A DNA stretch of 64,000 nt from a virus, in IMG/VR virus record IMGVR_UViG_3300028840_000789, positions 3,687 through 67,686 of that record, one strand, 5' to 3'. Position 1 is the stretch's first letter, and each line of letters begins with the position of its first letter. The position numbers and the translations under genes are program-made. Shown here piece after piece: positions 6,005-63,004 of the stretch. The notes under the pieces are model-generated. The model worked only from the letters and a program-made list of their open reading frames with translations, searched no databases and was not told the origin of the DNA.

Positions 6005-6009
6005 GTCAT

Positions 6010-6483
6010 TTAGATTACTTCACCTTCAAATACGGTAGCGGGCGTCTCCCAACCAAGTTGATCACCGGGACCAACATATATAAGACGATCACCATTAGAG
6101 CCACCAGGTGGTAGACTGATACTACCACTACCACCTGACTGGTTAAGAATGGTTACATTCTCAAGAGATGCTTCAACGTGAGGCCCTATGACCATACCCC
6201 ATCTATAGGAGTAGTCAGACATAAGCTGTCTAAGCGTTGCCTCTGTAATTGAATCATCGAAATACAGGACTGCATTGCCATCCGCGTCAATAACATTAAA
6301 CGTCGGATCATTAAGTTGTGCAATAATCCAATCAGCTTCTTCAATGTAAAGCATGATTCTATTCCAATCAGCTTGACGTTCACGACCTTTATCTTCAAGG
6401 CGTACGAGTTCAGCAGCTTGGTCGGAGAGCCACTCTTTAGCACTACCAATGAAACTAATAATATCTTCTTGTATCGTAGCCAT
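6010..6483 (-). CDS. Tail hub/fibre adaptor-like protein, 157 aa
   Basis: Helical N-terminus, Gly-rich linker and LP.GG..G..L......WE fibre motif; gene order. Confidence 0.4.
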   Translation of the reverse strand: MATIQEDIISFIGSAKEWLSDQAAELVRLEDKGRERQADWNRIMLYIEEADWIIAQLNDPTFNVIDADGNAVLYFDDSITEATLRQLMSDYSYRWGMVIGPHVEASLENVTILNQSGGSGSISLPPGGSNGDRLIYVGPGDQLGWETPATVFEGEVI

Positions 6484-6485
6484 AA

Positions 6486-17700: not shown

Positions 17701-20700
17701 GTAAGCCGCAACTTGTGACTTACGAACACCACCATGACCTAACGGATTATCCATACGTGTACCATACTGCTCTCCGAATCGGAACCGTATTTCATGTAAC
17801 CTACCAGTATTCTCGTTCTTAGTAGCAAAGTACATCGGCTTCCCTGACATCTGTACCGTACTCATGAAGGTAGTTACCAGTGAGAATACACCGACGCCTG
17901 CCTTAGCTTGACGTCCAGATAAGTACCTATCTCTCTGATACATACTAGTAGCAGGACTAAAGACACCAGCACTGTTTAGCTTCGAGTCGATCTCGGCAGC
18001 AAGCTCTTCCAACTGACCGTAACCAATAGGATTGGTCATCAGGTCATAAGTCTCGGGCCGTGACATCACCTCTAAGTGTATCTCATGCTGTTCATCCTGG
18101 AGCCGCTTAATCTTACTCTGTAGAATGGCATCTTCCTTATCCCAGATCGTATTAACACTAGCATCGTTCTCACGTTCTTCATCAAGACGTGCTTTCTCAG
18201 CCGCCCACTTCTTCTCAATCTCTGCTTCACTATGCTGATACCTACGCATCTTAACTTGACCATCAGTATCGGTATACGTCTCAAAGTTGAAGAAGTTCAT
18301 GTACAACTTATCCACGTCAAAGTCAGATCCCATCTGTGCAACGAAGTCCCTAGTAGCAATGACCATGTTCTGCTCCATCGGTAAGAACCCTACTATCTCA
18401 ACCTCCGCCATCGAAGACTGATTAGATGTAGGAATACGATAGGCAAAGCTACGTAATAGTTCCGCAGGAATCCTAGTCATATCAATACGTCCATCGTCAT
18501 TCATGAATTGCTCCATCGGAATGACGTTGCCATTATGATCTCTAAAGTTCCACGGTACGATCACCTGTGCAGGTCGAACACGTTTTTGGGGAACAGCTTT
18601 CTTACCAAGCGAACGTTTTTCCACGAAAGTATTTCGGATCGCAGCTTTGATAGCATCTCGACCTTTGTTCGTATTACCGAAGGCAAGAACTATACCAGTA
18701 TTAGGTTTAAGCTTTGGTAGTTCGTCAAGCTCTCTCCAACCTACAAACCCATCAGCAGGGGTATAATAAGTGACATACCACTTGTCAGTAAGATTATCAT
18801 AGAGGCTAACTTTCTTACCTTGATCAATAGCCATCTGAGCAGTCCATGCTCCCTGATCTTCAAGATGATCACCATTGAATCGACCAGTCATGATAATCTC
18901 ACTAGACTCCATAACAACACGGTGACTAGCGCGTATATGCGCTCTAACCAACCTGCCCTTATCACCTTCCGGTATTGATTTGTTAGGTAAGGAAAGAGCC
19001 GCTTGCTCTAGTGCATTACTTGCAGCAGTCTCTTGACCTTCACTAAGTCGAATTGTATTAGCAAGATTTGAAGGAGTTTCCCTATGATGATATGCTGATA
19101 TGTTAAGATTAAACTCGGCAGCCAGTTCTTCTAGAACCATATTCTGATCACCGCCTTCAGTATTAATCTGGAACGCACCACCAGCAAATGTTTCAGTAAA
19201 TTCTGTCTCGGCGGGTTCCAGGATTAACTGTACATGATCTTCGTAACCGATGCCGCGTACGGCTTCACCAGTTTCTTCGGCACTTGCGCGTCGCCAGTTA
19301 GCTCGAACGTTTTCAACATCAAGACCTTGCACCTTAGCAAACTCTTCGGGAGTAGTCTCTGATGCTTCTCGCTTCTGTACGATCTTATAGAAGGCAGCCT
19401 CACTTGGCCCCTCAACTCGAATAACATCACCTTCAGCAAGTGTATCAAACTCTTTATACTGTGTACTGATACCAGTAGCTTCACCACTTTTAAGAGCACC
19501 AAATAATGTCTTAGCCTTCATGCCCTTCGCAGGCTTGTTGTTATCTTTATACGCAACATCAACCTTAACTGACTTCTTATGTCCACCCTTAGCAACGAGA
19601 GCCTTAACTCGCTCCATGCGGTTAACCTCCTCGAACTGCTCTTCTTCAACCATTCGATCCTCTAGTTTCGCAGGCTTTAGTTCACCTTTATAATTATCGG
19701 TAAACACAATACCGTTACCAGGACTATCTAGGAACTTTTGTAAGGCCGCCTCATCATCGAGCATCTCCTTGTTCAGCTTCCAACCATCCTCCGATACCAG
19801 TACGTGACCAGCACCAGGTACTTTATTCTCAAGAACTTTGTTCTGCACAATAGAGTTGAGCAGACTTTCAACACGAGTTCTACTGTTAGAGAACGGAAGT
19901 TGAGCTATAAACTCTGCTTCCGGCAAAGCAAGAAGTGCAATATCGTTATTAGGATAACCACGAGCTATTGCTTCTTCGTGTAGCTTCTTCTGTACGACGG
20001 AAACATTCAGCTCTCTAACACCGGTCTCCTCATTCTTAGGTGACAGTGTGTTAAGTAGGTATTCAGCCTTTGCTTCAAAGAGCTGAGTATAGTTATCCAT
20101 ATATCTCTTAGCAATCTCGGACATCTCGGGATGCTGCAACAGGTCAACTAACAAGAGCTTCCGTTGCTGAGTAGCATCTTTAATACGAGACTTATTAGGA
20201 TTATAAGGTATGTCCTGCTGAATCCTAAAGCCCTCTAAGGGTAGTGCCAGAGTATTTGTAGCATCAAATTCAAAGTCGTCTCTTACATCACCATTTTCAT
20301 CCCAAAGTTGTGAAGTACTAGTATCACCATCTTGAGATATTAATGCACCCAACTTCCAAGCAGAACGTGAAGCAACACGATCTACCCTACCTTGGATCAT
20401 CTTCTGTCGAACCTTATCAATCTCCAAGCCTTCAGTCAGCTGCTTGATCAATGGGATAGAAGATGACTTGATATATACAGCACGTTCAGTTAAGCCATCA
20501 TCTGCACGTCGGTAGTTCCAACGATAGACAGGCTTCTGAGGTTGTAATGCTTTAGTAAGTTCAAAGATCTGTGACAAGTCTTGCTTGGATAGTTGCTTCT
20601 TATCTTCAAGACGTAACCATCTTTCTGCTTGCTCACGAGGTATCATACCTTGACTTACAAGTACATCAAGATGTTCTTCAAGAGTAGTCCACTCCTGTGA

Positions 20701-23700
20701 GTCAGCACCTTTAATAGCAGCGTACTCCTTATGTTTTTTAGCAAGTTCTTCATTAAGTGACCTAGCTTTACGATCATCAACTATACCGTAAATGATGTTT
20801 CTCTTAACGGGATTGAGTACACGCGGACGACCGGGTGCATCATCACCAGCAAGTCGTTTACCAATGTTATCGAATGTGTTACGAACTTGAGCTTGTACAT
20901 CAGCACCTTTAGTCCAAAAGAGTGCAGGATCACCAGCAAACAACTTAAAGATGTTTGTATTAGCTACGAGTGAGTTCATCAAGAAGTCCATTGCCACATA
21001 CTTCATGAGTTTCTCACCACTAGCTGCACTCATGTTTTTGGCATGAGTAAGATAAGAACCATCAACATTCTTGAGATACTTCTTACCATTAGATGAGGTC
21101 TGAATGATCCCGTGTTCTTCCCACTTTGCTATAAGGTCGTTTAGCTTTGACTGGAAGTGCGACGCTACAATATCCTTAATGTTCTGAATATGAGTCTTAC
21201 CATTACTAGCAACTTCGGTTTCCAGATCTGCCATTGGAAGTAAGACTCCATCTTCATCATACAGCTCCTGTACGAGAGTACTACCACCTTCATGATTAAG
21301 TTCCGGAACAAAGTAGAACAATCCTTTACCGCCTTGCATCTGTGGGTTGTCCACGTTGACATTCGTGAAAGCGTGTATCCTATCCATATCAGGCTTAACC
21401 ATCTCCTCGAATAAGATATCAACCATATCGTCTGCTAGATTCTCTTCCGAGTTCATTGCAGTATCAACACCTACAGTAGTCAATGCAGTCAGGTTTTTCT
21501 TACCAGTATTTGGGTAGAGCATATGAACGATACGCTTCGTACCCTTATTCCGCATACGACCATTGTTTGTAAAGAGAGCAAGTTCCAGTACACTAAGTTC
21601 TGGATCAGTTAACTCACCAGTCTCTTTACCTTTCTGACGACCCTCAGACTTATATGCATCAACGAGGAACATATCGAAGACCTCCTGCATGTCGGGATCA
21701 CTTTCCAACAGCTTGGCCCAACGAGCATTCTTGTTGTACGCCATCTCCTTGAGGTTCTCAAGGAGACTTTGTTGAGGATCAAGTAGTAATCTAAAACGAT
21801 CATTCATATACTTATTATAAGCATATCCATAGATCATTTTATTCTTACCATTATAAAAGCTATGTGCATGGACGTCATTGCGGAATATAGCATTATGACT
21901 TGCCATACGACGTATAGCGTTATCTTCAAAGAGAGAAACTTCTTCAATACTTTGACCAGTCTTAGCACTCTGCTGAGCACGCTCCAATAGTATAACAAGC
22001 GCACCAGTCTTAGGCTTAATGCGCTGTGTCCATATACCATTATGCGTAACGGATTCCTCAAGTGCAAGAGGTTCGAGTTCGATACCAAAATGAGAGAGAT
22101 ACTGATCATACAACCGTACTGCTGTATCTAGCCATTCTTGGTAGTCCTTATTCTCTGGCCCCAATCGGTTCTTGACATGCTGCTTGACAGTATTGAAATC
22201 CTTCTCAATCTGTTCAACATCCTCTGCTGTATAACGTACATCACCATCTTCCGTCTGGAACATATCGTCGTTTGCCCGTAGGTTCGACATCCACATATCC
22301 ATCAGCGTCCGTCCTTCAGCAGTTCTGTTCGAGTCAACTACCTTCATACTTTGACCGTCCTGGATGACATACTTCATCTTGACAGCACCCTTAGTCATTT
22401 CAGTAGCAAACTCATTCTGAACTTGCTCACCAGCAGCTTCAAGCTTATCAACTACTTGTGCAAGGTACGGCTGTACGTTACGATCTCTAGCAGATTTGAG
22501 TCGAGCAATAACCTCACTATACTTAGGTGCAGCACCTGCTAAGATAGCTTGCAGTGCAGCATATACTTCATCATGAGCCTCAAACAGTTCAACCATTAAA
22601 TAAGAAGCACGCTTCTTACCATCAGGTCGTCGTCTATCAACTTGGTTGATACCAGATAGGAACAGCTTTAACCGTCCCGATAAGGTATCGTGAGGATTCA
22701 ATTCAATATTAGTCTTATCGTAATCAGTCTTCTCGTTGTATCCTTCAATATCAAGAGACTCATTAGCTTCTTGGTGATCATCATTAGTGTTACCTTCACT
22801 AATCTTGATACCATTGATTCGCTTTAGTCTACTCTTAATAGCCTCAGCAATCTTCGGCCAGTTCTTATCACTGATAATATTTGCAACCTTGTCTGCAACT
22901 TCATCGTTACCATCGGCACGTACGTTCCTTTCTTGCGCCTCAAGATTAGCTTTAATTTCAGCAATGATCTGACCGTAGCTTAGTTTCTTACCCTGTTTTG
23001 CAACAAGCTGATTAAGAACACCAAATGCAAATGAGCTGACAAGTTCGTGTTGCTGTAAAGCAGTAATGCCATCAACACGGAACCTTGCGTATTCATCAAT
23101 GGCCTCTTGGATTATAGGATCACTAATGTCACCTTTCTCTGGTTCAGCAGCAACTGCACCAGTTACAAACGAAGTACCTAATTCATCATCACCGTACTTC
23201 TTAGGCTCGGGCTTAGGTTTAGTCTGTATAGGAGCATCCTCAACAGTAGTACCCTCAAGCTTAGCACGAATCTTTTCAATAACAGCGTTAGGAGTATCCG
23301 ATCCTAATATTGGAATATCTAAACCTTTTGCAACAGATCGTAGTGCATTAGTAATAAAGGCAGGAACACCACCTTCATCTATACTATCAAGTATTTCACG
23401 CGCCTTAGATTCAACTGTAGTAGGACTACCCTTCTTCTTAGGTTCAGTCTTAACTTCAACATCCTCGACCGGTCCCGGCACTTCCGTAGGAACAGTAACA
23501 GTTATATTAGGTTGTTGGAATACAGTATAGTTACCATCACCCAGATCAAACTGTACGACATTAGTAGTATGTACACCTTTAAGAAATGTATCATAAGCCG
23601 TCTCAACAATTTTTGCATCTCCCGTTTCTGTAATAAGAGGATACTTAATCTTACCTGTCTCAAAAGGAGTTTGACCTTGTTGAGCTGGATCAAGACTAGC

Positions 23701-26700
23701 GTGGAAATAACTAAGGGCAACAACATCAGCAACACCTTGATAGAACTCTTCGGAATCAATCAGTACACTATCTTCACCAAGACCAGATCGAAACACCATG
23801 TTCTGATCTTCATCAAGCATTGCTGTCATGTATAGCTTATTCCCACCTATCGCAATGTCAATACCGTTAGGTGTAATATGTATAAAGGAATCGTTTTCGT
23901 TCTCAACCGTCTCCATCTTGTCGCGGAGGTACTCACCCTTTTCAAGGTGTGCAGTATCCATAAAGAGACGTACATAATTCTCAAGACCTTTGGCAGTAGA
24001 TAAGTTAAAGCCAGCTTTTTCAGCAGCTTTAAAAGCTTCTGTAGTAAGGTTTTGTGTAAGATGTAAACGAATAGCTTCTACAATAGAAGTAACGATTTCA
24101 GGTCGTGTGTCTAGTCTTGTAGACATAAGAGGTATAGCAAAGTAGCTATCCTTTGTCTTAGGTACGAACGCATACAAGTGACCACTATTAAGATCGTGTC
24201 CAACATACTCACCCGCAGGTGACTTACCGTTAAAGTATTGAATACCTTTAGAAGTTTTAACACCAATAGAAACATTGGGATCTTTGAAAGCCTCTGCAAC
24301 ACTCATGGGCTTCTTACCAGCAGTAAAGGCTAAGTGACCTTGACTCTTATGCTCGATCTTCGATTGGTAAACTCCCTGCTTCACAATAGCTTCACGTGCT
24401 ATCCGTAGCATCTCTAAATCATCCTCAACATTCTCACCAACAACGCGATTAGGTATGCTATCAGTATCTGCTAGATAACCAATAATCTTACCATTCTCAT
24501 TCTTGATGGCAATAGGAATGTGATCATACTTCTGGTTACCTTCCTTATCAGCACCTTTCTCAACAAGTGATGCGTAAGTATTAGTACCATCATCATAATC
24601 ACGATCAACTTCCAATGTAACCTTAGTACCCTCGGTATAGAACCCGATAGCCAGCATCAACGGATCACGAAGTTCTTGACTCAGCTCATTACCCTCATCA
24701 GTAATCTGATCACCGTTCCTTTGGAAAGGTCTAGAAACATAAGATATTTTATTGTGACCCCACAACAGTAACTTGTTATCGAGATGAACTGTTTGTCCAT
24801 TCTCATCAGTTATAGTCTCACTAGCTTCCTTGTCAAGATCTTTAGCAATACGGTTAATCTCAAGCGGCTTCTCCGTATTAGTCGTATTAGTAGTTGATAC
24901 ATTAGCAGGGTTCTTAGGATTCGTAGCTCCAGTTCCTGGCTTTGCACTACCACCATCCTGACCGTCCCCGCTTTCAGCAGCCTCCTCAGGCGTAAACTTA
25001 TCAGCAATTTGTTCCCATATCTTCTCTTCCTCACCACGCTTAATCGTGCCTTCTATAGGAAGCATGGCAGCGTTCAGACCCTGCATCATGATCACTCGAT
25101 CGACGGTGTCCTTCTTGTAGAAGATCTTAACCATCGCCTTCTTACCATTATCACCAATACCGTCAACAGTAACTTGCGACGGATTCTCATTAGGCTTATA
25201 TACTTTAGGTGGTTTCTTAGGATCAGTAACTACACCGGTACCTGTCTCTTCCGTCTTCTTGGCACCATCTTCTTTCTTACCATCAGTACTCTTACCAGCA
25301 ACTGTGGGATCAGTGTTCTCCTCACCAGATTCTTTCTCAGTCTGCTTCTTAGCAATCTTCTTACCAGCACGTTTCTCTCGCTTAGCCTTAGCTGCATCCT
25401 TCTTACGTTGAGCTTTGTCAGCCTCAGCTTTCTCTTTCATCAGCTTCTTAGCCAACTCAAAGTCTTTCTTAGCTTGCTCTAAGCTAGTAGCATTAGCAAG
25501 CTGACTTGTGACGGAATCCTTGAAACTTCTAATAATAGCTCGTTCCTTGAGATCACGACTAAGTTCATGATCACCATCAAACTCATTAGACTCAATCGTT
25601 GCTTGCTTACGATCAATAGCAGCCAGGTTATCTTGATGCACCTTAATCTTACCTTCCAACTGATCACGTTGCGCCTTCATCTTATTGATCTGACGCGTAA
25701 TCGTATTAGTAGGAGTCTTTTTATGAGGAGGCTCAAGACCCTTATCCTCAAGCATCTTGATCGTACTATTACGTTTCTGAATCTCTTGCTTCATAGCCTC
25801 ATGCTCTTCAATAAGAGTATTCAGCTCATCACGCTCTTTAGTTGCAACATGAATATCAATATCGTCTGCATTGATAGCATCCCCACGTTCCCGTGCGAGA
25901 TCGGAGAGTAACTTCTCCTTGCGGGCACTAATTTTATTGTCAACTTCTTCAAGATGTTTATTAGCAAGTTCTTGATGACGTGACAATCTAAAGATCTCTT
26001 TAAGTCGAGGTTGGAATACAGGATTAGAGTACTTAGCACGTAGTCCTAAGAACTGGTTCTCCATCGTGATCATCCGCTTCTGAAACTGATTAAGTTCAGC
26101 CAGTTCCTCTTCGAGCATAGCAGTGTTCTCATTCGCATCCTTAGCAGCCTTAATTTCAGCCTGCTTATCAGATACCGCACCTTCGAGCGTACGTTCCAAC
26201 TTATCCGTAGTACCACGTTCAAAGTTCTCGTATGCTAAATCAATAAAGCTATCTTCCCGTATATATTCAGCAGCAGCACTCTCACCTTGATTCGTAGCTT
26301 GACGTAATGCAATACCACGATTGATTTGCTCCTGCAACTTGTTCTCGACATAAGCATTGTTACGCTTAATTTGCTCCTGTTGCTTGGTGTAGTCCTCATT
26401 GATACGGTCTTTGTTCATGAGGTCACCAGGACCTTGTATAATACCATATTGTATTGGGCCACCAAGGAATCCCATAACACCTTCAAGAAGAGCTTGTTCA
26501 CTAGTAGCAAACGACCACAAACGTTCCTGCATCGTTGTCGGAATACCATAGTCAAAGACTACACCAGCACGATCCTTAGCTTGAAACTTCGCCTCCTTCT
26601 GAATGACGTTCTGACCAATTTCTTCTACAGATTCACCAACTGCTTGTACAAGTGGGTTATCGACAGATAGCTTCTTAAAGGAATCTCTAAATGCTTTAGC

Positions 26701-27714
26701 TCCAAGTTGACGTGCTTCACGGCGAGTAGATCCAAAACCTCTCATTATATTACCGAGTGCTAACGCATCAGTAAAGATGAAAGCCCGGTTCCACGCCAGC
26801 ATATCATCAGCAGCTTCTCCTGCAATAGTTCTCATTTGCTCCTCAGACATCTCGGGGTTTGATGCCTTCAGTTCGGCCAACGTCTCTTCATACGTCTCCA
26901 TTGCCATCATCTTACCTTCCCCGTAGTTAGTAATCATGGCAGAGGTAAATTGTTGACCTCTCGCACCAAGACCCTCTAGGTAAGGTGATATACCCTCAAG
27001 ATACTTTCCTAGACGAGCTTGACGAACAGCCTGTGCTGCACCACGAGTTCTTGCCAAACCCGCAAGACCTTTACCTGCCCACTTTCCTAATGCTTTTACA
27101 CCAGTACCAACTCCAAGACCGGTAACACCAAAGCCGACTGCTGAATCTAACAGTGATGCAAAAGCACCCCAGTAAAAGCCGGAGTCTCCCATATCAATAA
27201 TAGAACCAGGATCACGTCGATAGATCGGAGCAATATCTTCTCGTAATGCTTCTTTACCTTGTTTAGCAAGATCAGCGATCCAGTTACTACCTGCATCTTC
27301 CTCACCCTGTAGCAAACCTAGATGACTTTCAACATCAAGAATATAAGATGCATCCTCAATAGCTGTTAGAAGACCACCACCAATACCTTGTACAAATGAG
27401 TTAGCAGCTTGATGTGTCCACGGTTGATGTTCAGCACGCCACGTAGTTTGGTTAGCACCATAAGGCATATTCTTATCATACTTACCAAGCTTTTGATAAG
27501 GTGAAGCAAGGTCAAGCATACCATTGTCCATGCCACCTTGTTGCGCATTCTGCTTTAACCACTCTAAGTCTTCATCAGTAGCATCTGGGACAGCTCCTAT
27601 TGGTATAGGCTCTTTAATAGGATCATCCTTTAAAGGCTCTACTCCAAGAGCTTTAGCTAACTCTTCATCGGTCATAAAACCGTCCTGTCGATTCTGTTCG
27701 TTTATATCAGCCAT
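11719..27714 (-). CDS. Giant virion-packaged DNA-dependent RNA polymerase polyprotein, 5331 aa
   Basis: Catalytic GSDFDVDK (nt 18307-18324) preceded by YRIPT; QPQKP, IKSS and TQQRKL two-barrel RNAP motifs; zincin-like HELFH (15604-15618); C-terminal QFRRW / LPD-like region; follows the cargo genes. Confidence 0.93.
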   Translation of the reverse strand: MADINEQNRQDGFMTDEELAKALGVEPLKDDPIKEPIPIGAVPDATDEDLEWLKQNAQQGGMDNGMLDLASPYQKLGKYDKNMPYGANQTTWRAEHQPWTHQAANSFVQGIGGGLLTAIEDASYILDVESHLGLLQGEEDAGSNWIADLAKQGKEALREDIAPIYRRDPGSIIDMGDSGFYWGAFASLLDSAVGFGVTGLGVGTGVKALGKWAGKGLAGLARTRGAAQAVRQARLGKYLEGISPYLEGLGARGQQFTSAMITNYGEGKMMAMETYEETLAELKASNPEMSEEQMRTIAGEAADDMLAWNRAFIFTDALALGNIMRGFGSTRREARQLGAKAFRDSFKKLSVDNPLVQAVGESVEEIGQNVIQKEAKFQAKDRAGVVFDYGIPTTMQERLWSFATSEQALLEGVMGFLGGPIQYGIIQGPGDLMNKDRINEDYTKQQEQIKRNNAYVENKLQEQINRGIALRQATNQGESAAAEYIREDSFIDLAYENFERGTTDKLERTLEGAVSDKQAEIKAAKDANENTAMLEEELAELNQFQKRMITMENQFLGLRAKYSNPVFQPRLKEIFRLSRHQELANKHLEEVDNKISARKEKLLSDLARERGDAINADDIDIHVATKERDELNTLIEEHEAMKQEIQKRNSTIKMLEDKGLEPPHKKTPTNTITRQINKMKAQRDQLEGKIKVHQDNLAAIDRKQATIESNEFDGDHELSRDLKERAIIRSFKDSVTSQLANATSLEQAKKDFELAKKLMKEKAEADKAQRKKDAAKAKREKRAGKKIAKKQTEKESGEENTDPTVAGKSTDGKKEDGAKKTEETGTGVVTDPKKPPKVYKPNENPSQVTVDGIGDNGKKAMVKIFYKKDTVDRVIMMQGLNAAMLPIEGTIKRGEEEKIWEQIADKFTPEEAAESGDGQDGGSAKPGTGATNPKNPANVSTTNTTNTEKPLEINRIAKDLDKEASETITDENGQTVHLDNKLLLWGHNKISYVSRPFQRNGDQITDEGNELSQELRDPLMLAIGFYTEGTKVTLEVDRDYDDGTNTYASLVEKGADKEGNQKYDHIPIAIKNENGKIIGYLADTDSIPNRVVGENVEDDLEMLRIAREAIVKQGVYQSKIEHKSQGHLAFTAGKKPMSVAEAFKDPNVSIGVKTSKGIQYFNGKSPAGEYVGHDLNSGHLYAFVPKTKDSYFAIPLMSTRLDTRPEIVTSIVEAIRLHLTQNLTTEAFKAAEKAGFNLSTAKGLENYVRLFMDTAHLEKGEYLRDKMETVENENDSFIHITPNGIDIAIGGNKLYMTAMLDEDQNMVFRSGLGEDSVLIDSEEFYQGVADVVALSYFHASLDPAQQGQTPFETGKIKYPLITETGDAKIVETAYDTFLKGVHTTNVVQFDLGDGNYTVFQQPNITVTVPTEVPGPVEDVEVKTEPKKKGSPTTVESKAREILDSIDEGGVPAFITNALRSVAKGLDIPILGSDTPNAVIEKIRAKLEGTTVEDAPIQTKPKPEPKKYGDDELGTSFVTGAVAAEPEKGDISDPIIQEAIDEYARFRVDGITALQQHELVSSFAFGVLNQLVAKQGKKLSYGQIIAEIKANLEAQERNVRADGNDEVADKVANIISDKNWPKIAEAIKSRLKRINGIKISEGNTNDDHQEANESLDIEGYNEKTDYDKTNIELNPHDTLSGRLKLFLSGINQVDRRRPDGKKRASYLMVELFEAHDEVYAALQAILAGAAPKYSEVIARLKSARDRNVQPYLAQVVDKLEAAGEQVQNEFATEMTKGAVKMKYVIQDGQSMKVVDSNRTAEGRTLMDMWMSNLRANDDMFQTEDGDVRYTAEDVEQIEKDFNTVKQHVKNRLGPENKDYQEWLDTAVRLYDQYLSHFGIELEPLALEESVTHNGIWTQRIKPKTGALVILLERAQQSAKTGQSIEEVSLFEDNAIRRMASHNAIFRNDVHAHSFYNGKNKMIYGYAYNKYMNDRFRLLLDPQQSLLENLKEMAYNKNARWAKLLESDPDMQEVFDMFLVDAYKSEGRQKGKETGELTDPELSVLELALFTNNGRMRNKGTKRIVHMLYPNTGKKNLTALTTVGVDTAMNSEENLADDMVDILFEEMVKPDMDRIHAFTNVNVDNPQMQGGKGLFYFVPELNHEGGSTLVQELYDEDGVLLPMADLETEVASNGKTHIQNIKDIVASHFQSKLNDLIAKWEEHGIIQTSSNGKKYLKNVDGSYLTHAKNMSAASGEKLMKYVAMDFLMNSLVANTNIFKLFAGDPALFWTKGADVQAQVRNTFDNIGKRLAGDDAPGRPRVLNPVKRNIIYGIVDDRKARSLNEELAKKHKEYAAIKGADSQEWTTLEEHLDVLVSQGMIPREQAERWLRLEDKKQLSKQDLSQIFELTKALQPQKPVYRWNYRRADDGLTERAVYIKSSSIPLIKQLTEGLEIDKVRQKMIQGRVDRVASRSAWKLGALISQDGDTSTSQLWDENGDVRDDFEFDATNTLALPLEGFRIQQDIPYNPNKSRIKDATQQRKLLLVDLLQHPEMSEIAKRYMDNYTQLFEAKAEYLLNTLSPKNEETGVRELNVSVVQKKLHEEAIARGYPNNDIALLALPEAEFIAQLPFSNSRTRVESLLNSIVQNKVLENKVPGAGHVLVSEDGWKLNKEMLDDEAALQKFLDSPGNGIVFTDNYKGELKPAKLEDRMVEEEQFEEVNRMERVKALVAKGGHKKSVKVDVAYKDNNKPAKGMKAKTLFGALKSGEATGISTQYKEFDTLAEGDVIRVEGPSEAAFYKIVQKREASETTPEEFAKVQGLDVENVRANWRRASAEETGEAVRGIGYEDHVQLILEPAETEFTETFAGGAFQINTEGGDQNMVLEELAAEFNLNISAYHHRETPSNLANTIRLSEGQETAASNALEQAALSLPNKSIPEGDKGRLVRAHIRASHRVVMESSEIIMTGRFNGDHLEDQGAWTAQMAIDQGKKVSLYDNLTDKWYVTYYTPADGFVGWRELDELPKLKPNTGIVLAFGNTNKGRDAIKAAIRNTFVEKRSLGKKAVPQKRVRPAQVIVPWNFRDHNGNVIPMEQFMNDDGRIDMTRIPAELLRSFAYRIPTSNQSSMAEVEIVGFLPMEQNMVIATRDFVAQMGSDFDVDKLYMNFFNFETYTDTDGQVKMRRYQHSEAEIEKKWAAEKARLDEERENDASVNTIWDKEDAILQSKIKRLQDEQHEIHLEVMSRPETYDLMTNPIGYGQLEELAAEIDSKLNSAGVFSPATSMYQRDRYLSGRQAKAGVGVFSLVTTFMSTVQMSGKPMYFATKNENTGRLHEIRFRFGEQYGTRMDNPLGHGGVRKSQVAAYFQNAALDDEKIGALSKLNINNSTYPVINALIVSGFDERTISAFINQPIVRDYVTALNKYQGTFVEDADNNGAAKLAYAEVVEKYNSPEFEQTLQESNEDYMLLNMARQISSDTMMDQINTESDIETQRALLEYFVHIKRFGDDLRTATTAINSDSKGIPKFYSHSVLKEEDARKLGQLKIYNAPALLGDFFENIEEADEGLELTSFNPRTINGLAYKFGLHINNQLWRTILPYDNDFFNEVVSRIEHTSGLRNRGHDARGALRHQISLEVASYMSSALTENVQQLRGRLTKDTKTNKSLASIVKMLKEQSKLADNAFFRLLKHHVTKKNDGLSLVYIENASARRITEEHIHAGFMSLLEENRPLGTFNGKEYTTNDLAMDLAMYDILSGNHDARSFSRYVPFPLRRRLLERAVGKDNTLWHDSERMKPEAFLMQYYQHKPYHAKRITASNSGMFVASDNEEIGKAKVLMVDPEALEGNEKWQNELVSMDEKDKGGPMKYFSVRRIVNKKPQWSLYVFDGSNAEGEYIYKQIPVLGTFGMSEYVRTVGDSPIQSLMEKNNRRAFQELENPNSTLPNSTDSTNPVIKTESTTPKRPRQSAVYDALPAFPKATRLLEHVTGITGVPAYEYFANYLLDGFRDVMNQVTIVNDDETSKDETDKDALFKVTEDGKVSITFYRKAMHQRRYSREDVMRVIFHELFHVVTWEQLEDVMKKRETDSTMKKLYAELEEIMKYVKPKMFAAIDDLEDEALKSRLRQLEGETAIHEFAVEILTDKAVQKILNKIQLPKSLKRRANTSDDIKDGVVKLISASLEGDAYDPNSALTRAMEIALQVTYTKRQEIGKKASGHAFETGAVAPIEADPYARTGPPKGVDKIIADRQQRVKEIQGTIAQIRGVKGSILRVQELESRIRVLNREIKNLRNRKTLKKIDLFAARDLDRVRQIVAKGDDMRPEHFFEAERIVNLWKKSMDVLFTQEEREDPDNELVAKLEEYKNTAERLEGRLSEGRDKLMNKYMESVGVKKGIDQILQESKDVDWLHAQTLDISRFDNAMFQVISKFVWDADMHFKNELAEFEEEFNGIAEKAIKKLKERGYKGDRLYDLFRQKDERGRYTGWTVSPFTPEYYWMRTKLANEAKKEGGEAWTKYYDFIRKNNLTFDFRRLFKIDEVFESEEDRAYNHTFLSAAMKEGDQAHRDEIREIIGDAEYEKMMGQAAEALENYKSDYEHAKEMITEEIKDEEERNKLIRKWVKENSPYWYGERVIDGDNTKVRGALKDVKKTENDYVPSIARTDEYADENFKEIASDEDLLRFYDYYTRQMRHVRQILPDHAVEHMSQNSVAYLKKSVGDLIVNSGSLTAGIGVIMDAANKMIAQNERESAFVSTDPITGEAVTGFNIKIPSDKAAVDDIVDKMRLAHIADNGQEPTLAERREMIAVARDKVAHDKRFDLEAALKYSVMMGLSYKHKARVEPAVKLASRIMSNAAEVQRTADGRNVIDRATKKLMYKDNVGAFAMQRRALDQFMRHFYGIPQEHEGSWGKWLTTEEKQERKEMEDLLDKLRKQYLDGELAHEEYEKAKARVEQRLENLGQTIKPTKFVKAAMKMVQLKGMGWNFFSAWNNINFGVIANWVTAADRRFYTQKELAAGYGLTLHSIGRNASFNMITTDTAKKIRSLVRKFNLDDLTHEYQRNSVGKKGWFPQRLMPLAMMSSSEYLNYAPLMVAMLKHHKMEDGSEAWEHYDANGKWIHETEAEPDIAAKIVSVKNMNHGNYHASATILADRSVWGQMFMQFRRWIGEAFAQRFEAEKDDAILGVKRKGRYNTGVGFISFTGTEDMGWAQATLFTLGQLGRKLMFADTTFDEAGFSEVDAANLRKNLQELVILLGIVGTTLMLKMAVNPDDEQQKAIIYTLLNTLSRLQMDVTFYANPFEMETLIRRPIPIASLITDTYSFMDASVKLILGQDEIKSGIYAGHSRWMREAGQLMPLTTQFYRAYSASKMIY

Positions 27715-42668: not shown

Positions 42669-43925
42669 TTAAAATCCGAGCTTTTTACTATTAGCAATCC
42701 CCTCAAAGTCAAGAAGTGGAATACTACCACTACGGCTAGCACTTCCACCACTTCCTCCTCCAGGAGGAGTACGTTTACTATTATCTTTGTTAGCCTTACC
42801 AAACAGGAGCTTGCTTGTGTTTGTCACTATATTAGGTAGTTTGAAATCTTTGTACACAATATAGTCTAACCATAGTTTTTGTGCAAGCGTTAGCTTAGAA
42901 TATTTTTCATCAGACATAGTAGTTACACCATCAGACTTCACAACCTTACCAACATAGTTTTTGAAACCTTCGATGTCCGCAGTAGGAATCTTCAATCCAC
43001 CACCAAAATCATTCTTAGTAACGATCTCAATAGCTTGATTACGTTCCTGCTGTAATGCTTCAAGTTGTGCATCAACAGCAGCTTGTTCTTCCTTCTCATA
43101 CGCCTCAATCTGCGCATCAAAGTCCGCACTTAGCATTTGCTTGGCAGCTTCAGCAGTATCAGCCATCTTACCACCATCTTGGGCAGTCTTAACAATAGCT
43201 TCGATAGCTACGTCATCCACACCCTTTGATTTGTAAGCCTGACGAATCAACTGCTCATATACCTTAGTAACATTAGCTTTAGCTTTGTCATCCATCTCGT
43301 CGGTAATCTTTGGTAACTCATTGGCGAGTATGGCAGGCTTCTGCTGTCGCATGAACAAGCTTTGTATCGGGAGCTTCTTATCCAAGTGCTCCTTCACTTG
43401 CTTCAACATCGGTTGATCCTCGAAGTAGTTCTGTAACTTCTTCTCGAACGCAACTTCATCTCTCTTAGCTAAGTATGCTTGTAACCCTTCCATTGAGTTA
43501 TCAAACGTACCTTCCTCAAGGAAACCTTCAGCTTGCATCAACTGTAATACCGAGTTGTCCTTGCTAACGTAAGCCTCTACAGCTTCCGCATTATCTTCGA
43601 GGAACTTCTTCTCCTCGTCCGTGAGGTTCTCCTCACCTTTTTCAGCAAGCTCCGCTATACGAGCTTCCACTTCTGCACCATCATCTTGCTTTTGGGTAGC
43701 AACGAAATCTTTATGCTTCTCAAGAAGGGCCTTCTCTTCGTCACTGCGCTGATTTTCATCAACACCTAGCAATTGGGTGATCTGTTCCTTTAGCTGATCC
43801 GTCAGCTCATCTCCACCATCACCTGGTTCTTCCGGTGGATCTGGTGGTTCGGGTGATCCACCACCTAGTGGTTTCTTCACCTCAAAGGCAGCTAACTTTT
43901 CAATAGGAATTTCTGGGCCATCCAT
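42669..43925 (-). CDS. Scaffold-like acidic protein upstream of the MCP, 418 aa
   Basis: Very acidic and helical; conserved position between portal and MCP. Confidence 0.65.
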   Translation of the reverse strand: MDGPEIPIEKLAAFEVKKPLGGGSPEPPDPPEEPGDGGDELTDQLKEQITQLLGVDENQRSDEEKALLEKHKDFVATQKQDDGAEVEARIAELAEKGEENLTDEEKKFLEDNAEAVEAYVSKDNSVLQLMQAEGFLEEGTFDNSMEGLQAYLAKRDEVAFEKKLQNYFEDQPMLKQVKEHLDKKLPIQSLFMRQQKPAILANELPKITDEMDDKAKANVTKVYEQLIRQAYKSKGVDDVAIEAIVKTAQDGGKMADTAEAAKQMLSADFDAQIEAYEKEEQAAVDAQLEALQQERNQAIEIVTKNDFGGGLKIPTADIEGFKNYVGKVVKSDGVTTMSDEKYSKLTLAQKLWLDYIVYKDFKLPNIVTNTSKLLFGKANKDNSKRTPPGGGSGGSASRSGSIPLLDFEGIANSKKLGF

Positions 43926-56806: not shown

Positions 56807-56810
56807 AAAC

Positions 56811-56927
56811 ATGGAAACTCTAAAGAAAGTGCGTGTTGGTAAGGAGTTACGCAAGAAGCAGATTGAAATAATCCTAGTCATTTCTACGATGCTCGGATTA
56901 TTTAGCCTTGCGGTAGCTCAACTATAA
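56811..56927 (+). CDS. 38-aa membrane peptide (basic N-terminus plus TM)
   Basis: Translated by hand: METLKKVRVGKELRKKQIEIILVISTMLGLFSLAVAQL. Confidence 0.5.
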   Translation: METLKKVRVGKELRKKQIEIILVISTMLGLFSLAVAQL

Positions 56928-56941
56928 ATTATATGATGAAA

Positions 56942-57252
56942 ATGATCAGCGATACTTTAACTAGTATCGCTGGTTTCACCGTCGAATGATCACCTCAACG
57001 TGGTGACGGTGTCTAGTAGCCCATTACGCGGTGAAGCTAACGATCATAAGGGAAAAGGATGTCTATCAGTTAGTGATAATTCCGTACTAAAAGCACTAAC
57101 GATACTAGCCTTACCGCTAGACAGGATCTAGTGAGTAGACTAATAACTATGCAAGCGTATACGCTGTTAGTCATAGTAAGTCGCTGTTTGATCAGCAGAG
57201 ATGTAAGCAAGGTGACACATGGTCGGACATGATGTGAGACATCCTTTCCCTT
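56942..57252 (+). ncRNA. Unassigned, highly structured intergenic RNA with two adjacent domains
   Basis: 10-bp perfect hairpin 56947-56972; 16-bp closing stem 57048-57064/57237-57252 enclosing at least five hairpins; no ORF of 60 aa or more. Confidence 0.6.
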
Positions 57253-57286
57253 TTACTTTGAAACTTTCACTAACATACAATATACT

Positions 57287-58776: not shown

Positions 58777-58993
58777 TGAAAGTGGATGGAAGAAGTGGAC
58801 AGGTCATCTACGACCTTGTCCACTTGTTTTTTGTCTCAGACTTAAACGTGGCTGGAGAGTACATTTTAAACAACAAGATGACTTAGCTTATGCTGATTAT
58901 TATAATCAGCGTGGAGAGTTAATCTTGTTAGTTCACTTAAAGATGAACTTAATTAAAGTTGATCAACAATTTACCGATTTTATACTTAACTAA
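58760..58993 (+). CDS. Hypothetical protein (~77 aa)
   Basis: ATG at 58760 overlapping the upstream gene end. Confidence 0.5.
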   Translation: MYAEGDESGWKKWTGHLRPCPLVFCLRLKRGWRVHFKQQDDLAYADYYNQRGELILLVHLKMNLIKVDQQFTDFILN

Positions 58994-59000
58994 TGAAACA

Positions 59001-59363: not shown

Positions 59364-60230
59364 TCTGATTGTATTGGCACTAGTTGTGCTGATTATGCCA
59401 GCTTGTCTAACAGACAAAGAAGAAGTTGAAGTATATGTAGGTGAAGGATACTATCGTGCCATAATATTGATTTTGATGGTGCTACTAGTTATTCACCTAT
59501 CGCATACATACAACCGATTAGTACGTATAACCTACGTAATGCGCGTGTTGCTGGAGATTCTGTTCTAGAACTAGTTGACAAAATAGTAACTGATTGTTTC
59601 ACTCTTGAAACACACAGATGCTATGATGGACCAATTGGTGCTACAACACTTAACGCTCTTGGTGGTAAGTTTGGATTTAACTTAATCTGGAATGATGATT
59701 GTGATGTTACTGATATTACAGTAATCAAGAATGAATTATCTTCCAAGCGATATCCTAATCCGTTCTCTACCTATGAGTTTAATGTAGGCACATTCTGGAC
59801 AGAAGGATCAGTCTTCGATAAAGATGATATTTATACATCTCCTTATCGAGAACCTGATACAGGTATAATCTGGATACCAGAGCTGTACGCTCCAAGCGAA
59901 CCAACATACAACTGGAAGTTTTGGCTTTCAATCAATGGTAAAACTTACAAGCTTGAGACGCAAATACGTTTCGATAATAATACTCTTATTCCAGAGGATG
60001 CGAAATGTACAGCATTTGCGTTGCCTGTTACTTGGATATCTGTTGATGTAACACGTAGTGGTTATTGTAATTTGTTCACATTTACTGTTGCAGAGCAGAT
60101 TGATGTGAACTATTATGAGATTCAGTTTTCAACTGATGCTGTTGAGTGGGAGACTGTCGGAATGGTAGCTCCTCTTGATTTTGATAAAGGAACTTATACT
60201 TATGACTTTGAACATTGTAACAATGAGTGA
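59338..60230 (+). pseudogene. Frameshifted lipoprotein gene (~297 aa if joined) ending in a T9SS-cargo-like 'LPV' Ig domain
   Basis: Signal peptide ...LIVLALVVLIMPA-CLTDKEE in one frame; a 261-codon open frame 59445-60230 in the -1 frame with no ATG and no GTG/TTG until 60021. Confidence 0.65.
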
Positions 60231-60828
60231 AAAGAAAAATGAATTAGCAACAAAACATGTTACTGTAATTGGTGGTACTCTCATTAACCTACGAGATGCG
60301 GATACTTTTGGTGAAGCAATCGGCGATCTTTTTGTAGAGTTTGCTGATGCACCTGCATTTGATGCATGGTCACTAGATGTACATGAGCAAATCGTGGAAG
60401 GTAATTCACCTCATGATGGTAGAATCTCTGATCTACTATTAGAAGGTTTAAATATTGCCATGAAAGAGGGTGTTACTGAAGTGACTCCTCAATTCGTTGT
60501 TCATATAAGCCTGGCTATTGGTAGAATGTTACAGTCTGCTGCTAGTAGGCGACACGAACGCATGGAAGAACTCATGAACGAAAGCATGGGAGAACTCAAT
60601 GACAAGATGAAAGACTTAATGGAACATCTACATTTGGGTGAAACTACTCCGGAAGAGTGCCATGATTGTGAACATTATGATGAGTGTACCAGCCCTTTAA
60701 AGGCTGATAAGAGCGAGATAGCGGAGTACAAGGGACAGATGGAAGTGGACGATGATCTTGCTACTCTGATTAAGGAAGTGCAGGATGAGATTAAGAAAGA
60801 GTTGAATGGTGATGATGAGGAGCCTTAA
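60223..60828 (+). CDS. Acidic hypothetical protein with a CxxC...C motif (~201 aa)
   Basis: Start MSEKKNEL overlapping the upstream stop; CHDCEHYDEC. Confidence 0.7.
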   Translation: MSEKKNELATKHVTVIGGTLINLRDADTFGEAIGDLFVEFADAPAFDAWSLDVHEQIVEGNSPHDGRISDLLLEGLNIAMKEGVTEVTPQFVVHISLAIGRMLQSAASRRHERMEELMNESMGELNDKMKDLMEHLHLGETTPEECHDCEHYDECTSPLKADKSEIAEYKGQMEVDDDLATLIKEVQDEIKKELNGDDEEP

Positions 60829-60847
60829 ATAGGCTGGAACCAAGTTG

Positions 60848-60878
60848 GGGGGCAAGGAAACTTGCTCCCTTCTTTTAT
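60848..60878 (+). terminator. Terminator-like hairpin directly upstream of the twister ribozyme
   Basis: GGGGGCAAG-GAAA-CTTGCTCCC followed by TTCTTTTA. Confidence 0.7.
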
Positions 60879-60879
60879 T

Positions 60880-60940
60880 ATATGTAGTAATGTAGCCAAT
60901 GACGGTCACAAGCCCGTATAAAATACAGAGTGATACATAT
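60880..60940 (+). ncRNA. Twister self-cleaving ribozyme, type P1
   Basis: P1 ATATGTA/TACATAT; U^AA cleavage site 60888/60889; P2 TGTA/TACA; P4 ACGG/CCGT with loop TCACAAGC; pseudoknots CAC/GTG and GC/GC; conserved GA on the 3' side of L1. Confidence 0.9.
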
Positions 60941-60958
60941 GAACTTAATTAAAATACA

Positions 60959-61624
60959 ATGCGTAAATTTGTCTTAACATTAAGCGTGTTGATCATGATG
61001 GTCAACACTGCTTACGTGAGTCCCCACGAAAGCGGGACAGATGATGGCGTTCGTGTTGGTGATACTAGAAATGGTTGGCAAAAGTTTGTTGATCGTATTA
61101 AGTATGGCCAAGATGATGCTGAGTACAAGCGGTTCAATCCTATCTATGCCTTTAAGAAGGAGATAAAGATGATGGGAATGCACCGTGATAAGGTTCGCAA
61201 GAAAGCTAAACGACTAGCTCGTAGATTTAATGGTCGTTATGCTGAAGGCGAAGGCTTTAAGGGCGTCTACTATATATTTGTAGAGTGGACAATGCCAGAC
61301 ACTAAAGGTTATTTAAGATACCACCGGAACTATTACTATTTCAAAGGTGGGCCATTCTTAGATGGCTATCAGTATGTTACTGGTGAAGAGGAGCTATACA
61401 GCTTGATCTTAAAGAGTTGTGAGATTGCTGCCAAAGGTGGTAGTCAGGAGTGTAAACGTGTAAAACCTCATAGATATCTTATTAGTAGGTTTGACATTGC
61501 AAACTTGTACACGTTTCACAATCCGATTGACCATGTATTTGTATCATTCGGTGCAGAACATGATCCTGCTGGTATTAAACCAGATCGTTTTCAAATGAGT
61601 GTTTATCGTCAAGAATTAATGTAA
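60959..61624 (+). CDS. Exported protein with a signal peptide, 221 aa
   Basis: MRKFVLTLSVLIMMVNTA N-terminus; AT-rich leader following the ribozyme. Confidence 0.7.
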   Translation: MRKFVLTLSVLIMMVNTAYVSPHESGTDDGVRVGDTRNGWQKFVDRIKYGQDDAEYKRFNPIYAFKKEIKMMGMHRDKVRKKAKRLARRFNGRYAEGEGFKGVYYIFVEWTMPDTKGYLRYHRNYYYFKGGPFLDGYQYVTGEEELYSLILKSCEIAAKGGSQECKRVKPHRYLISRFDIANLYTFHNPIDHVFVSFGAEHDPAGIKPDRFQMSVYRQELM

Positions 61625-61848
61625 TGGATGATATAACAGCGCGGGAACTTCTTGCTTTTATAAGTAAGAATCTACAGATGCCTCACTTTGGTTTGTATCC
61701 TCCAGAGGATGCTCATAGAATGGCGACTGTTAATGCCTTGCGTCTTATTGATAAGATTGCAGAGATGCGTGGTCTTGACTATGAGACTAACGGAAAAGAG
61801 TTTAATCAAATAATTGAAACATTCGAACATGGCGAAGAGAAAAGCTAA
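61624..61848 (+). CDS. Hypothetical protein, 74 aa
   Basis: TAATG coupling to the upstream gene. Confidence 0.6.
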   Translation: MDDITARELLAFISKNLQMPHFGLYPPEDAHRMATVNALRLIDKIAEMRGLDYETNGKEFNQIIETFEHGEEKS

Positions 61849-62332
61849 AGGTGGCTACAACCAATCACGACCTACTGAACGTAAGCGTGGTAAAATGAGC
61901 AGACGTGTACGTGACCCCAGATGTGATGAGGTTGCTACCGTAAGAGGATTTGTCAACAAGCTCCAACAGGGTAGGCTACGTACTGGTGGAAATCAAATGT
62001 CAAAGCGATTGCTCAATGATATGATTCACTCCAAGAAGAAATCAGCCTTTAAAGATGATCCTACTGGACATACCAATGCGGATTTGAATCGGTGTTCCGA
62101 ATCATCCCGGCTTAAACTTGCTATTCGTGTAGCGTCTACTTATAAAAGACGTGGTGCAAGGGAGATCTATGGTATGCCAAAGGATGCTTGGAGACGAATG
62201 GTCAAACGTGCAAAGCGAGGTGCTCAAGAGGTACATGGTAAAACACAACCATCTGCCAAAGAGAAGCGCCTTCAAAAGATTACTGGTCTACCCTATAGCC
62301 AGGTAAGAGAAATGATAGCAGCGCAGAAGTAA
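61829..62332 (+). CDS. Highly basic protein (~167 aa), probably nucleic-acid binding
   Basis: K/R-rich; start MAKRKAK; C-terminal helix-turn-helix-like KITGLPYSQVRE. Confidence 0.65.
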   Translation: MAKRKAKGGYNQSRPTERKRGKMSRRVRDPRCDEVATVRGFVNKLQQGRLRTGGNQMSKRLLNDMIHSKKKSAFKDDPTGHTNADLNRCSESSRLKLAIRVASTYKRRGAREIYGMPKDAWRRMVKRAKRGAQEVHGKTQPSAKEKRLQKITGLPYSQVREMIAAQK

Positions 62333-62397
62333 GTGGAAGAGGTGCTGTAAACTATACTCCAATTAAAACAAGTATTAACGGAAAAAATCGTAGAAAA

Positions 62398-62937
62398 ATG
62401 GAAAGTCGTTTATTGATTGTAACTGGAATATCGGATGAAAAGACCGATAAGAATGGAATGCCTTATGTAACCGTATCGGTTAGTCAGCCATCTCGTAAGA
62501 GAATTACTGACGAGGCAACAGGTGAGTCTTACATTGTTAAGACAAAAGCTCGAAGTACTGCATTTAATGCGTGGAAACATAGCTATTTGGAAGTTGCTGG
62601 TATTGCCAAGGATCTTGGGAAAGAGATCGAAGCACTCAAGCCTAACGAGTATGCTGATGCCAAGCCTGATTTCGCTTATACCCTTGAAGAAGGTGACCGC
62701 GTAGAAGGCGACATCATCACTCGGGAAGTCGAGCCTTATTCAATCGTGAATGAGGAGACTGGTGAAGAGCGTGAGGTTGATACCTACAGTTGTGCTGTTC
62801 TCGGTAACACATCCGATGCTTCTTTTAAGAACCTCATTAAGCAGACCTTTAACAGGAATGGTCATGAGGTACTGGAAGGTGCTGTCGATGATGCTGTTAT
62901 CGCAACTAAAACACGTGAGAACGTATTTCAGGACTAA
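62398..62937 (+). CDS. OB-fold / ssDNA-binding-like protein, 179 aa
   Basis: K.DKNG.PY and G..V.G.I....VEPY.I pattern; beta-rich and acidic; followed by a terminator; function inferred. Confidence 0.5.
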   Translation: MESRLLIVTGISDEKTDKNGMPYVTVSVSQPSRKRITDEATGESYIVKTKARSTAFNAWKHSYLEVAGIAKDLGKEIEALKPNEYADAKPDFAYTLEEGDRVEGDIITREVEPYSIVNEETGEEREVDTYSCAVLGNTSDASFKNLIKQTFNRNGHEVLEGAVDDAVIATKTRENVFQD

Positions 62938-62967
62938 ATAGTCCATCTGGAGGATAGTTTAATCATG

Positions 62968-63004
62968 AAAGCAGGGGGAGAGATCCCCTTGCTTTTACTT
63001 ATTT
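62968..63004 (+). terminator. Intrinsic terminator
   Basis: AAAGCAGGGGGA-GAGA-TCCCCTTGCTTT followed by TACTTATTT. Confidence 0.75.

Follow-up and report, generated by a model that had tools for sequence, protein, structure and literature searches.

The window analysed here is a stretch of 64,000 nucleotides, bases 3687-67686 of a 67,686-base linear virus record in IMG/VR that is estimated to be 76% complete. Within it, a 130-nt spacer separates the stop codon (60826-60828) of a 217-aa open reading frame (ORF) from the ATG at 60959 that opens a 221-aa ORF. The spacer holds two elements on the + strand: a terminator-like hairpin (60847-60870) and, starting 8 nt after it, a 65-nt element (60878-60942, including an extended 9-bp P1 helix) with the architecture of a twister ribozyme. 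Judged by its sequence and predicted fold, this element is a genuine minimal type-P1 twister: it has helices P1, P2 and P4 together with both pseudoknots (T1 and T2) and lacks helix P3, which is optional in the class. The class was reportedly defined by Roth et al. in 2014, a study cited here through PMC5408937 and PMC6765202; the first of these describes the O. sativa and env22 structures.

Folded to minimum free energy (MFE), 60878-60942 forms P1, P2 and P4; the energy is -13.8 kcal/mol, which 5 of 200 shuffles match (z -2.28). P1 comprises nine A/U-rich pairs (60878-60886 with 60934-60942), and a G60887/A60933 mismatch at its inner end adjoins the cleavage site. The cleavage-site triplet UAA (60888-60890), which aligns to positions 5-7 of the Rfam twister-P1 model RF03160, forms the internal loop next to P1 and is followed by P2 (UGUA at 60891-60894 with UACA at 60924-60927), a helix found both in the covariance-model alignment and in the MFE fold. 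By sequence complementarity, the GC at 60895-60896 would form T2 with G60912-C60913 of loop L4. A 5-nt linker, CAAUG (60897-60901), stands in place of P3, and 16 model positions are deleted here in the alignment. P4 (ACGG at 60902-60905 with CCGU at 60914-60917), again present in both alignment and fold, encloses L4 (UCACAAGC, 60906-60913), which matches the model consensus, and the CAC of L4 (60907-60909) is complementary to GUG at 60930-60932, its predicted T1 partner. AUAAAA (60918-60923) follows P4, with one A more than the model has at this junction, and the GAGUG internal-loop strand (60928-60932) aligns to and matches the consensus. When the 147 nt from 60829 to 60975 are folded together, hairpin and ribozyme form separate modules and the 16-nt leader before the ATG is unpaired.

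According to the relevant passages of PMC5408937, P1, P2, P4, T1 and T2 are essential in twisters and P3 is optional, with P1 reported to be dispensable for cleavage itself. The same passages place cleavage at a U-A step next to P1 and implicate G45 and A7 of the O. sativa ribozyme, and G48 and A6 of env22, in catalysis. All of the features by which we judged the element are present in it, namely P1, P2 and P4, both pseudoknots, the strongly conserved nucleotides of L1 and L4 (at least 10 in the class), and the U-A site. From the alignment to RF03160 and the site definition in PMC5408937, the scissile bond is predicted to be U60888^A60889, with 70 nt from A60889 to the ATG at 60959. By counting, we infer that G60928, which opens GAGUG, corresponds in position to the conserved catalytic guanine (G45/G48 in PMC5408937). 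The GAGUG strand lies 31 nt from the gene start (26 nt between them), and 16 nt separate the end of P1 from the ATG. An earlier sequence-only reading of the window had quoted and segmented 60880-60940 correctly to the base; the cut that it placed at 60888/60889, the catalytic G that it put at 60928 and its distance of 70 nt to the ATG all agree with these assignments.

That reading had also named the element a twister-P1 ribozyme and had proposed an Infernal search as a check, and covariance models bear out the identification. RF03160 aligns over its full length (model positions 1-68, with P3 deleted) to the 53 nt at 60884-60936 on the + strand, with 50.1 bits and E 1.6e-10 on 301 nt, and the match remains significant (E 3.4e-8) over both strands of the whole 64-kb window, though it lies below the gathering score of 67.2 bits. 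A default Rfam scan of the window at gathering listed nothing. The score falls short because the optional P3, which accounts for 16 model positions, is deleted, and gathering is a cut-off set in curation that describes no biological property of the RNA. Among 19 IMG/VR loci, each with a parsed twister, none had a twister match at that level, and in four other loci all seven twister matches lie below it (32.7-61.5 bits). The Rfam gathering score is of little use as a bar for phage twisters; given that it missed every phage twister examined, routine annotation under-reports them. The only other match in the window at E<=1 is to mir-92 (42695-42770, - strand, E 0.087), which lies inside an ORF (42669-43925, - strand) and was taken as noise.

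Independent support comes from a covariance model (R1) built from 40 distinct P3-less IMG/VR twisters, with the window copy excluded. R1 scores the window copy at 67.0 bits (rough E 1.9e-16) over 60882-60938, and this is its sole match in the window. Over the 94,028 bases searched it has four matches, and the other three are in loci with prior Rfam twister matches. An alignment of 40 independent copies (A3) has 27 invariant columns, and in all of them the window copy, as seen in alignment A1 below, carries the same letters.

The relatives of this element were collected with a pattern of 20 core positions, derived from the window, that occurs in at least 112 stretches of IMG/VR; all counts of contexts and loci given here are among the matches listed. 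Of 114 pattern occurrences, the window's included, 110 parse as type-P1 twisters, the four that do not being L008, L022, L026 and L080. They fall into 94 distinct contexts with the window's own, and in 46 of these the linker is likewise 5 nt long. Alignment A1 brings together 41 distinct P3-less copies, including that of the window. In its structure 81.4% of cells are paired, compared with 68.8% after shuffling (none of 500 shuffles reached the observed value) and with 21-45% when partners were slid. Pairing is 99.4% in P2, 98.8% in P4 and 100% in both T1 and T2, and in 16 of the 23 pairs both partners vary.

How much of this covariation is informative depends on the way in which the copies were found. 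The search pattern fixed the inner P4 pairs and L4, and thus the 3' partners of T2, both pairs of which are invariant in A1; the parser picked the register with the best P2 among the few possible. Given these constraints, the informative covariation is that of the inner four pairs of P1, of P2, of the outer P4 pair and of the middle T1 pair. All four P2 pairs show changes on both sides. The outer P4 pair covaries (AU 25, GC 6, GU 4, CG 3, UA 1), as does the middle T1 pair (AU 38, and CG, GC and UA once each), whose C/G, G/C and U/A variants occur in P3-containing copies too. At every informative covarying position the window copy has a standard pair, except at the innermost pair of P1. This inner P1 pair is unpaired in 4 of the 41 P3-less copies, and the extra A after P4 is also present in L095 and L081.

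The nearest core among these copies is that of L088, from a complete record of 117,753 bases with a weak crAss-type major capsid protein (MCP) match. It is almost identical to the window's, with the same P2, CAAUG linker, P4 and L4, and it is followed by an A/U-rich leader with TTAATTAAAAT. In layout the nearest is L041, where the T-tract behind a hairpin becomes part of a P1 of 9 bp; a P1 of nine pairs occurs in 7 of 93 contexts, the window's included. Similarity to the window spacer, aligned with five similar-looking loci, is confined to the ribozyme and the A/T-rich leader. A tblastn search of 18 window ORFs against all fetched loci gave no matches, and the flanking genes are unrelated. L088, L043, L101, L108 and L024 were considered as relatives and rejected, as the MCP of the window matched none of the five; the record of L088 does match weakly with the PHROG MCP profile.

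The hairpin that precedes the ribozyme was found in a consensus terminator scan and is terminator-like, as the sequence-only reading had described it: ten pairs, six of them G-C, are capped by a GAAA loop and followed by a T-rich tail (TCTTTTATTA, 60871-60880), the end of which overlaps the 5' strand of P1. It thus has the G+C-rich hairpin and U-tract of an intrinsic terminator, and termination at this site is predicted. Terminator-like sites are frequent in the region (12, compared with 3.9 +/- 2.2 in shuffles). A stronger terminator-like hairpin, with 14 pairs, lies at 62966-62997 (+ strand) in the next sizeable spacer of the block, and no ribozyme follows it. Between the end of the hairpin at 60870 and the start of P1 at 60878 there is no room for a promoter, and therefore the ribozyme can be present only in transcripts that pass the hairpin. 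The claim that no tRNA lies nearby held for the entire 64-kb window, in which ARAGORN found none, and the Rfam scan of the window gave neither a second ribozyme nor a RAGATH or ROOL RNA.

Upstream of the spacer, the 217-aa ORF (60175-60828, + strand) starts at TTG 60175, with ATG 60202 and ATG 60223 as alternatives, and has an acidic C-terminus. It matches PHROG only weakly (phrog_1733, E 0.0085), and no Pfam match and no relatives in viral contigs were found. The leader (60943-60958, + strand) is A/U-rich and unpaired in the fold and contains no Shine-Dalgarno motif, an absence that is usual for Bacteroidota and their phages. The 221-aa ORF (60959-61624, + strand) starts with MRKFVLTLSVLIMMVNTAYV, an N-terminus that is signal-peptide-like by appearance, in line with the signal peptide that the same reading had assigned to it, and is the first of a tightly packed run of + strand ORFs that reaches 62937. 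It has no PHROG or Pfam match and no relatives in viral or metagenome contigs, and in the ESM Atlas it falls only into unnamed clusters. The signal-peptide-like genes at 59001 and 60959 are not paralogues. Among nine neighbouring ORFs, two match PHROG families, both of unknown function, and none has a Pfam match above cut-off.

An exact 15-nt repeat (ATGAACTTAATTAAA) occurs on the + strand at 58943-58957 and 60939-60953, within 20 nt at 90% identity, and its second copy begins inside the 3' strand of the twister P1. Each copy opens a short ORF (of 16 and 12 codons, respectively) and precedes a gene with a hydrophobic N-terminus, at a distance of 43 nt (58958-59000) for the first copy and 5 nt for the second. 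This two-copy repeat may be chance. The 13-mer GAACTTAATTAAA has two exact copies, and its count at up to two mismatches is at chance level. A scan for sigma-70-type promoters was at chance as well (33 sites, compared with 26.0 +/- 6.8), and an 11-mer search of the eight intergenic regions of the block gave no shared promoter-like motif and one weak word found in three regions. The + strand block also has two ORF-poor gaps, of about 480 nt (56807-57286) and about 650 nt (59569-60222), with no Rfam match at E<=1 and no shared motif.

The phage itself, uncultured and marine, is crAss-like, at a distance, as the sequence-only reading had proposed. By their PHROG matches, its MCP (phrog_11589, E 7.5e-74), portal (phrog_6547, E 2.1e-90) and large terminase (phrog_6681, E 2.2e-108) are of the crAss type. 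A tblastn search with the MCP matched 97 phage records, all at less than 60% identity and 29 of them from Flavobacterium phage. The best 15 of the 97 are Crassvirales or crAssphage, with identities of about 29-30%, query coverage of 96-97% and E down to 4e-54; cr127_1 is among them (30% identity over 97% of the query, E 4e-54). A 5331-aa ORF (11719-27714, - strand) is of the size that a giant virion protein of a crAss-like phage would have. Genes on the - strand run from 54980 down to 588, and a block of small + strand ORFs, divergent from the structural block, begins at about 55271 and continues until the record ends. Some 5.6 kb into this block comes the twister, which has the same orientation as every ORF between about 55271 and 64000. 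The sequence-only reading had called the region early, which is one possible reading of a block of small ORFs of unknown function. Contigs with DNA of the window come from one sediment run and one seawater metagenome run, not from gut samples, and no RNA run was found to contain it; contigs of two DNA runs are identical to the window over 60500-61300, and these may be the source data. A blastn search of 59500-62500 in distant mode against 50,697 phage records gave no match, and an exact 29-nt pattern was absent from viral contigs.

Twisters appear to be sporadic in crAss-like phages. None of five named Crassvirales, chosen by MCP similarity, has a twister match at E<=0.01, and a crAss-type MCP match was found in 2 of 48 twister-bearing IMG/VR records, that of L088 included. 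A weak twister-like copy (32.7 bits) was found by blastn with the ribozyme in cr273_1 (L121, NC_055904.1, Suoliviridae) at 2497-2552 on the + strand. It has an altered L4 and GAGNG strand and lies within a stretch of about 2 kb without an annotated gene, and it may be a decayed or divergent copy. Another IMG/VR record with a weak crAss-type MCP match (L013, 173.9 kb) has, in a stretch of 8 kb (1895-9902, - strand), four tRNAs and a tmRNA with three twisters (58.8-61.5 bits) lying among them.

From the perspective of genome organization, it is useful to consider where phage twisters lie. ORF calls for this comparison were crude (longest ORFs of at least 40 aa), and 470 random positions in the same loci served as controls. 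A same-strand ORF stops at most 60 nt upstream in 66 of 94 contexts (99 of 470 controls), a same-strand ORF starts at most 60 nt downstream in 58 of 94 (128 of 470), and both hold in 37 of 94 (18 of 470). In only 9 of 94 contexts does the element lie inside a sense ORF of 80 aa or more, compared with 277 of 470 controls. By a loose criterion, 69 of 93 contexts and 410 of 930 control windows have a hairpin with 5 or more pairs whose end is no more than 20 nt from the cleavage site, and the 45 nt upstream have a mean MFE of -13.4 kcal/mol, compared with -6.9 kcal/mol in controls. In most other copies the hairpin abuts P1 (the commonest spacing is 4 nt) and no T-tract is present; we interpret these hairpins as the optional stem P0 named in PMC5408937. 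At least 5 T occur in the 8 nt after the hairpin in 6 of 93 contexts. The window copy is at the far end of the spacing range (17 nt), with a T-tract whose last bases form the 5' strand of P1, and L041 is the only other clearly similar case of hairpin, T-tract and P1.

The rarity of the arrangement that the sequence-only reading had implied was not supported: the same layout is present in many phage contigs, and the passage on twisters in PMC6765202 already places those of bacteria near phage genes, suggesting that they process polycistronic transcripts and giving no defined function. By the counts above, twisters are common between phage genes rather than rare. The element of the window is a further copy of a known ribozyme class in a known context, the phage spacer, and only its junction with a terminator-like hairpin is slightly unusual. 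In the survey of related phages that the same reading had proposed as a check, the layout recurred in contigs with unrelated flanking genes, and none of six MCP relatives, five of them fragments, had a twister at E<=0.01.

Several of the fetched loci hold other structured RNAs or more than one twister. Hammerhead II (L003, L009 and L027), pistol (L015 and L024), and RAGATH-4 and RAGATH-16 (both L004) reach the Rfam gathering score, unlike the twisters that reside with them. ROOL RNA is also among the RNAs in these loci. In a 96.5-kb IMG/VR contig (L007), a P3-less twister (6769-6832, - strand) lies 8 nt upstream of a ROOL RNA (6153-6760, - strand, 337 bits), whose 5' end would be set by cleavage, and nine tRNAs are nearby. 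Two twisters in MT835475.1 (L122; 2498-2549 and 2910-2968, + strand), 412 nt apart, bracket one small ORF, with a hairpin ahead of each twister and, behind each, a purine-rich stretch that resembles a ribosome-binding site, then an ATG; this is a clear case of per-cistron processing sites. A 171-nt contig from run X2 that aligns to 60887-60921 of the window carries another organism's twister, with 5 differences in 35 nt; its preceding letters resemble the 3' end of a further twister and a hairpin, which hints at tandem copies in this single contig of depth 3.

We consider it likely that the element is an active twister that cuts read-through or polycistronic RNA and uncouples the two cistrons, either as a processing site or as a fail-safe behind the terminator. 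Sequence and structure show its class membership, and the genome shows its layout; that it cleaves and that transcripts run through the site is inferred from these, and cleavage may either raise or lower the expression of the downstream genes. In this scenario, any + strand RNA extended beyond the hairpin (60847-60870) would fold the ribozyme and, by homology, be cut at U60888^A60889. The upstream product would be an RNA that ends 18 nt past the stable hairpin with a 2',3'-cyclic phosphate, and the downstream product an mRNA with a 5'-OH, the compact ribozyme fold, the 16-nt A/U-rich leader and the ATG at 60959. Cleavage would uncouple the cistrons physically, independent of polymerase and RNase, and the ribozyme would back up the terminator.

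Some observations weigh against this proposal. Efficient termination at the hairpin would leave few transcripts containing the ribozyme. The RF03160 score of 50.1 bits is below the curated 67.2 bits, a G/A mismatch sits beside the cleavage site and an extra A follows P4. None of six IMG/VR records with a related MCP (52-69% identity) holds a twister at E<=0.01, although five of the six are fragments and only one is at least 90% complete. There is also no orthologous site for comparison, and the flanking proteins are without relatives in viral contigs.

The alternative that survives best accepts an active twister and assigns it a net role that is negative or directed upstream, mainly as back-up formation of the 3' end of the upstream gene, with 5'-OH-dependent decay of the downstream RNA, similar to glmS. 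Read-through would then yield no expression of the downstream genes, which would either use a promoter of their own or be silent at that stage. A hairpin and T-tract resembling an intrinsic terminator, unusual as they are among phage twisters (the 6 of 93 contexts above), would suit such a role. In glmS, as described in a passage of PMC6765202, the 5'-OH end can trigger decay, and cleavage is followed by RNase degradation. The 15-nt motif after P1 (60939-60953), which recurs once before another gene, could be a regulatory or promoter element. However, it exists in two copies only, and short two-copy repeats are often due to chance; the gap to the ATG differs (5 nt and 43 nt), and the eight intergenic regions of the block share no promoter-like motif. 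The gene start within 60 nt of the twister in 58 of 94 contexts is a better fit to a role in the leader, and overall we regard an upstream or negative role as rather unlikely.

It is also conceivable, and in our view quite improbable, that the element is a twister by descent with little or no catalytic activity left, a decaying relic that persists in the spacer by chance. The mismatch in the inner part of P1, the extra A after P4 and the lack of P3 could be read as signs of decay, no conserved orthologous site exists to show purifying selection, and a clearly degenerate copy occurs in the crAss-like cr273_1 (32.7 bits). Yet every invariant position and all pairs of P2, P4, T1 and T2 are intact in the window copy, the 46 of 94 contexts with the short linker are equally P3-less, and both the G/A mismatch and the extra A are found in otherwise canonical copies. 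The identical sequence in contigs of two metagenome runs carries little weight here, as these contigs may be source data. Chance resemblance in A/T-rich intergenic DNA, or a mere stable hairpin, for which one might cite the modest MFE z of -2.28 (5 of 200 shuffles as stable) and the score below Rfam gathering, is effectively refuted by the E of 3.4e-8 for the window, by the 67.0 bits with the independent model R1, and by the presence of both pseudoknot partners, which covariance models do not score.

Returning to an active twister that separates the two cistrons, a broader and more speculative version, which we doubt, is that hairpin, twister and leader form a widespread, portable 'cistron insulator' of phages, one that generates transcript ends independently of polymerase and host RNases. 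The U-tract doubles as the 5' strand of P1, and in this version the nascent RNA would either terminate or fold into the ribozyme, so that every transcript would end near the hairpin either way. The downstream mRNA, with its 5'-OH and ribozyme cap, would escape decay that depends on the 5' end. The crAss-like phages transcribe with their own RNA polymerases, which may ignore host-type terminators, and an insulator of this kind, if it exists, would suit them. Regardless of this, the window copy is a convenient test case for the splitting of polycistronic or read-through RNA by twisters, because it is the only ribozyme in a window with no tRNA and lies between a terminator-like hairpin and a nearby gene start.

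In the library searched, no paper was found to link self-cleaving ribozymes with crAss-like phages, save for a remark in a 2026 preprint (10.64898/2026.03.07.710320), in the part concerned, that hatchet is largely confined to Crassvirales. The passages on ribozymes in a Crassvirales review mention them only as introns. Papers that combine 'twister', 'ribozyme' and 'crass' include matches to Neurospora crassa, and both occurrences in the 2019 review PMC6765202 read so.

Among known systems, the type-P1 twisters of RF03160 are the closest, and the window copy shares with them the P1-P2-P4 arrangement, T1 and T2, the U^A site adjoining P1, conserved L1 and L4, and termini in P1. It differs from them in lacking P3, in its unusually long, A/U-rich P1 of 9 bp, in the inner G/A mismatch and in the extra A after P4. 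Hammerhead II, pistol and hatchet ribozymes of phages are likewise small self-cleaving RNAs of intergenic regions, although their fold class differs. HDV-like 'theta' ribozymes adjoin phage tRNAs. The twister of the window differs from these cases in standing alone, with neither a tRNA nor a RAGATH RNA nor another ribozyme in the whole 64 kb. We know of no ligand dependence of twisters, unlike that of glmS. The likeness to glmS, as far as the passage in PMC6765202 describes it, lies in self-cleavage within a leader, which would yield a 5'-OH mRNA with a fate unlike that of the primary transcript.

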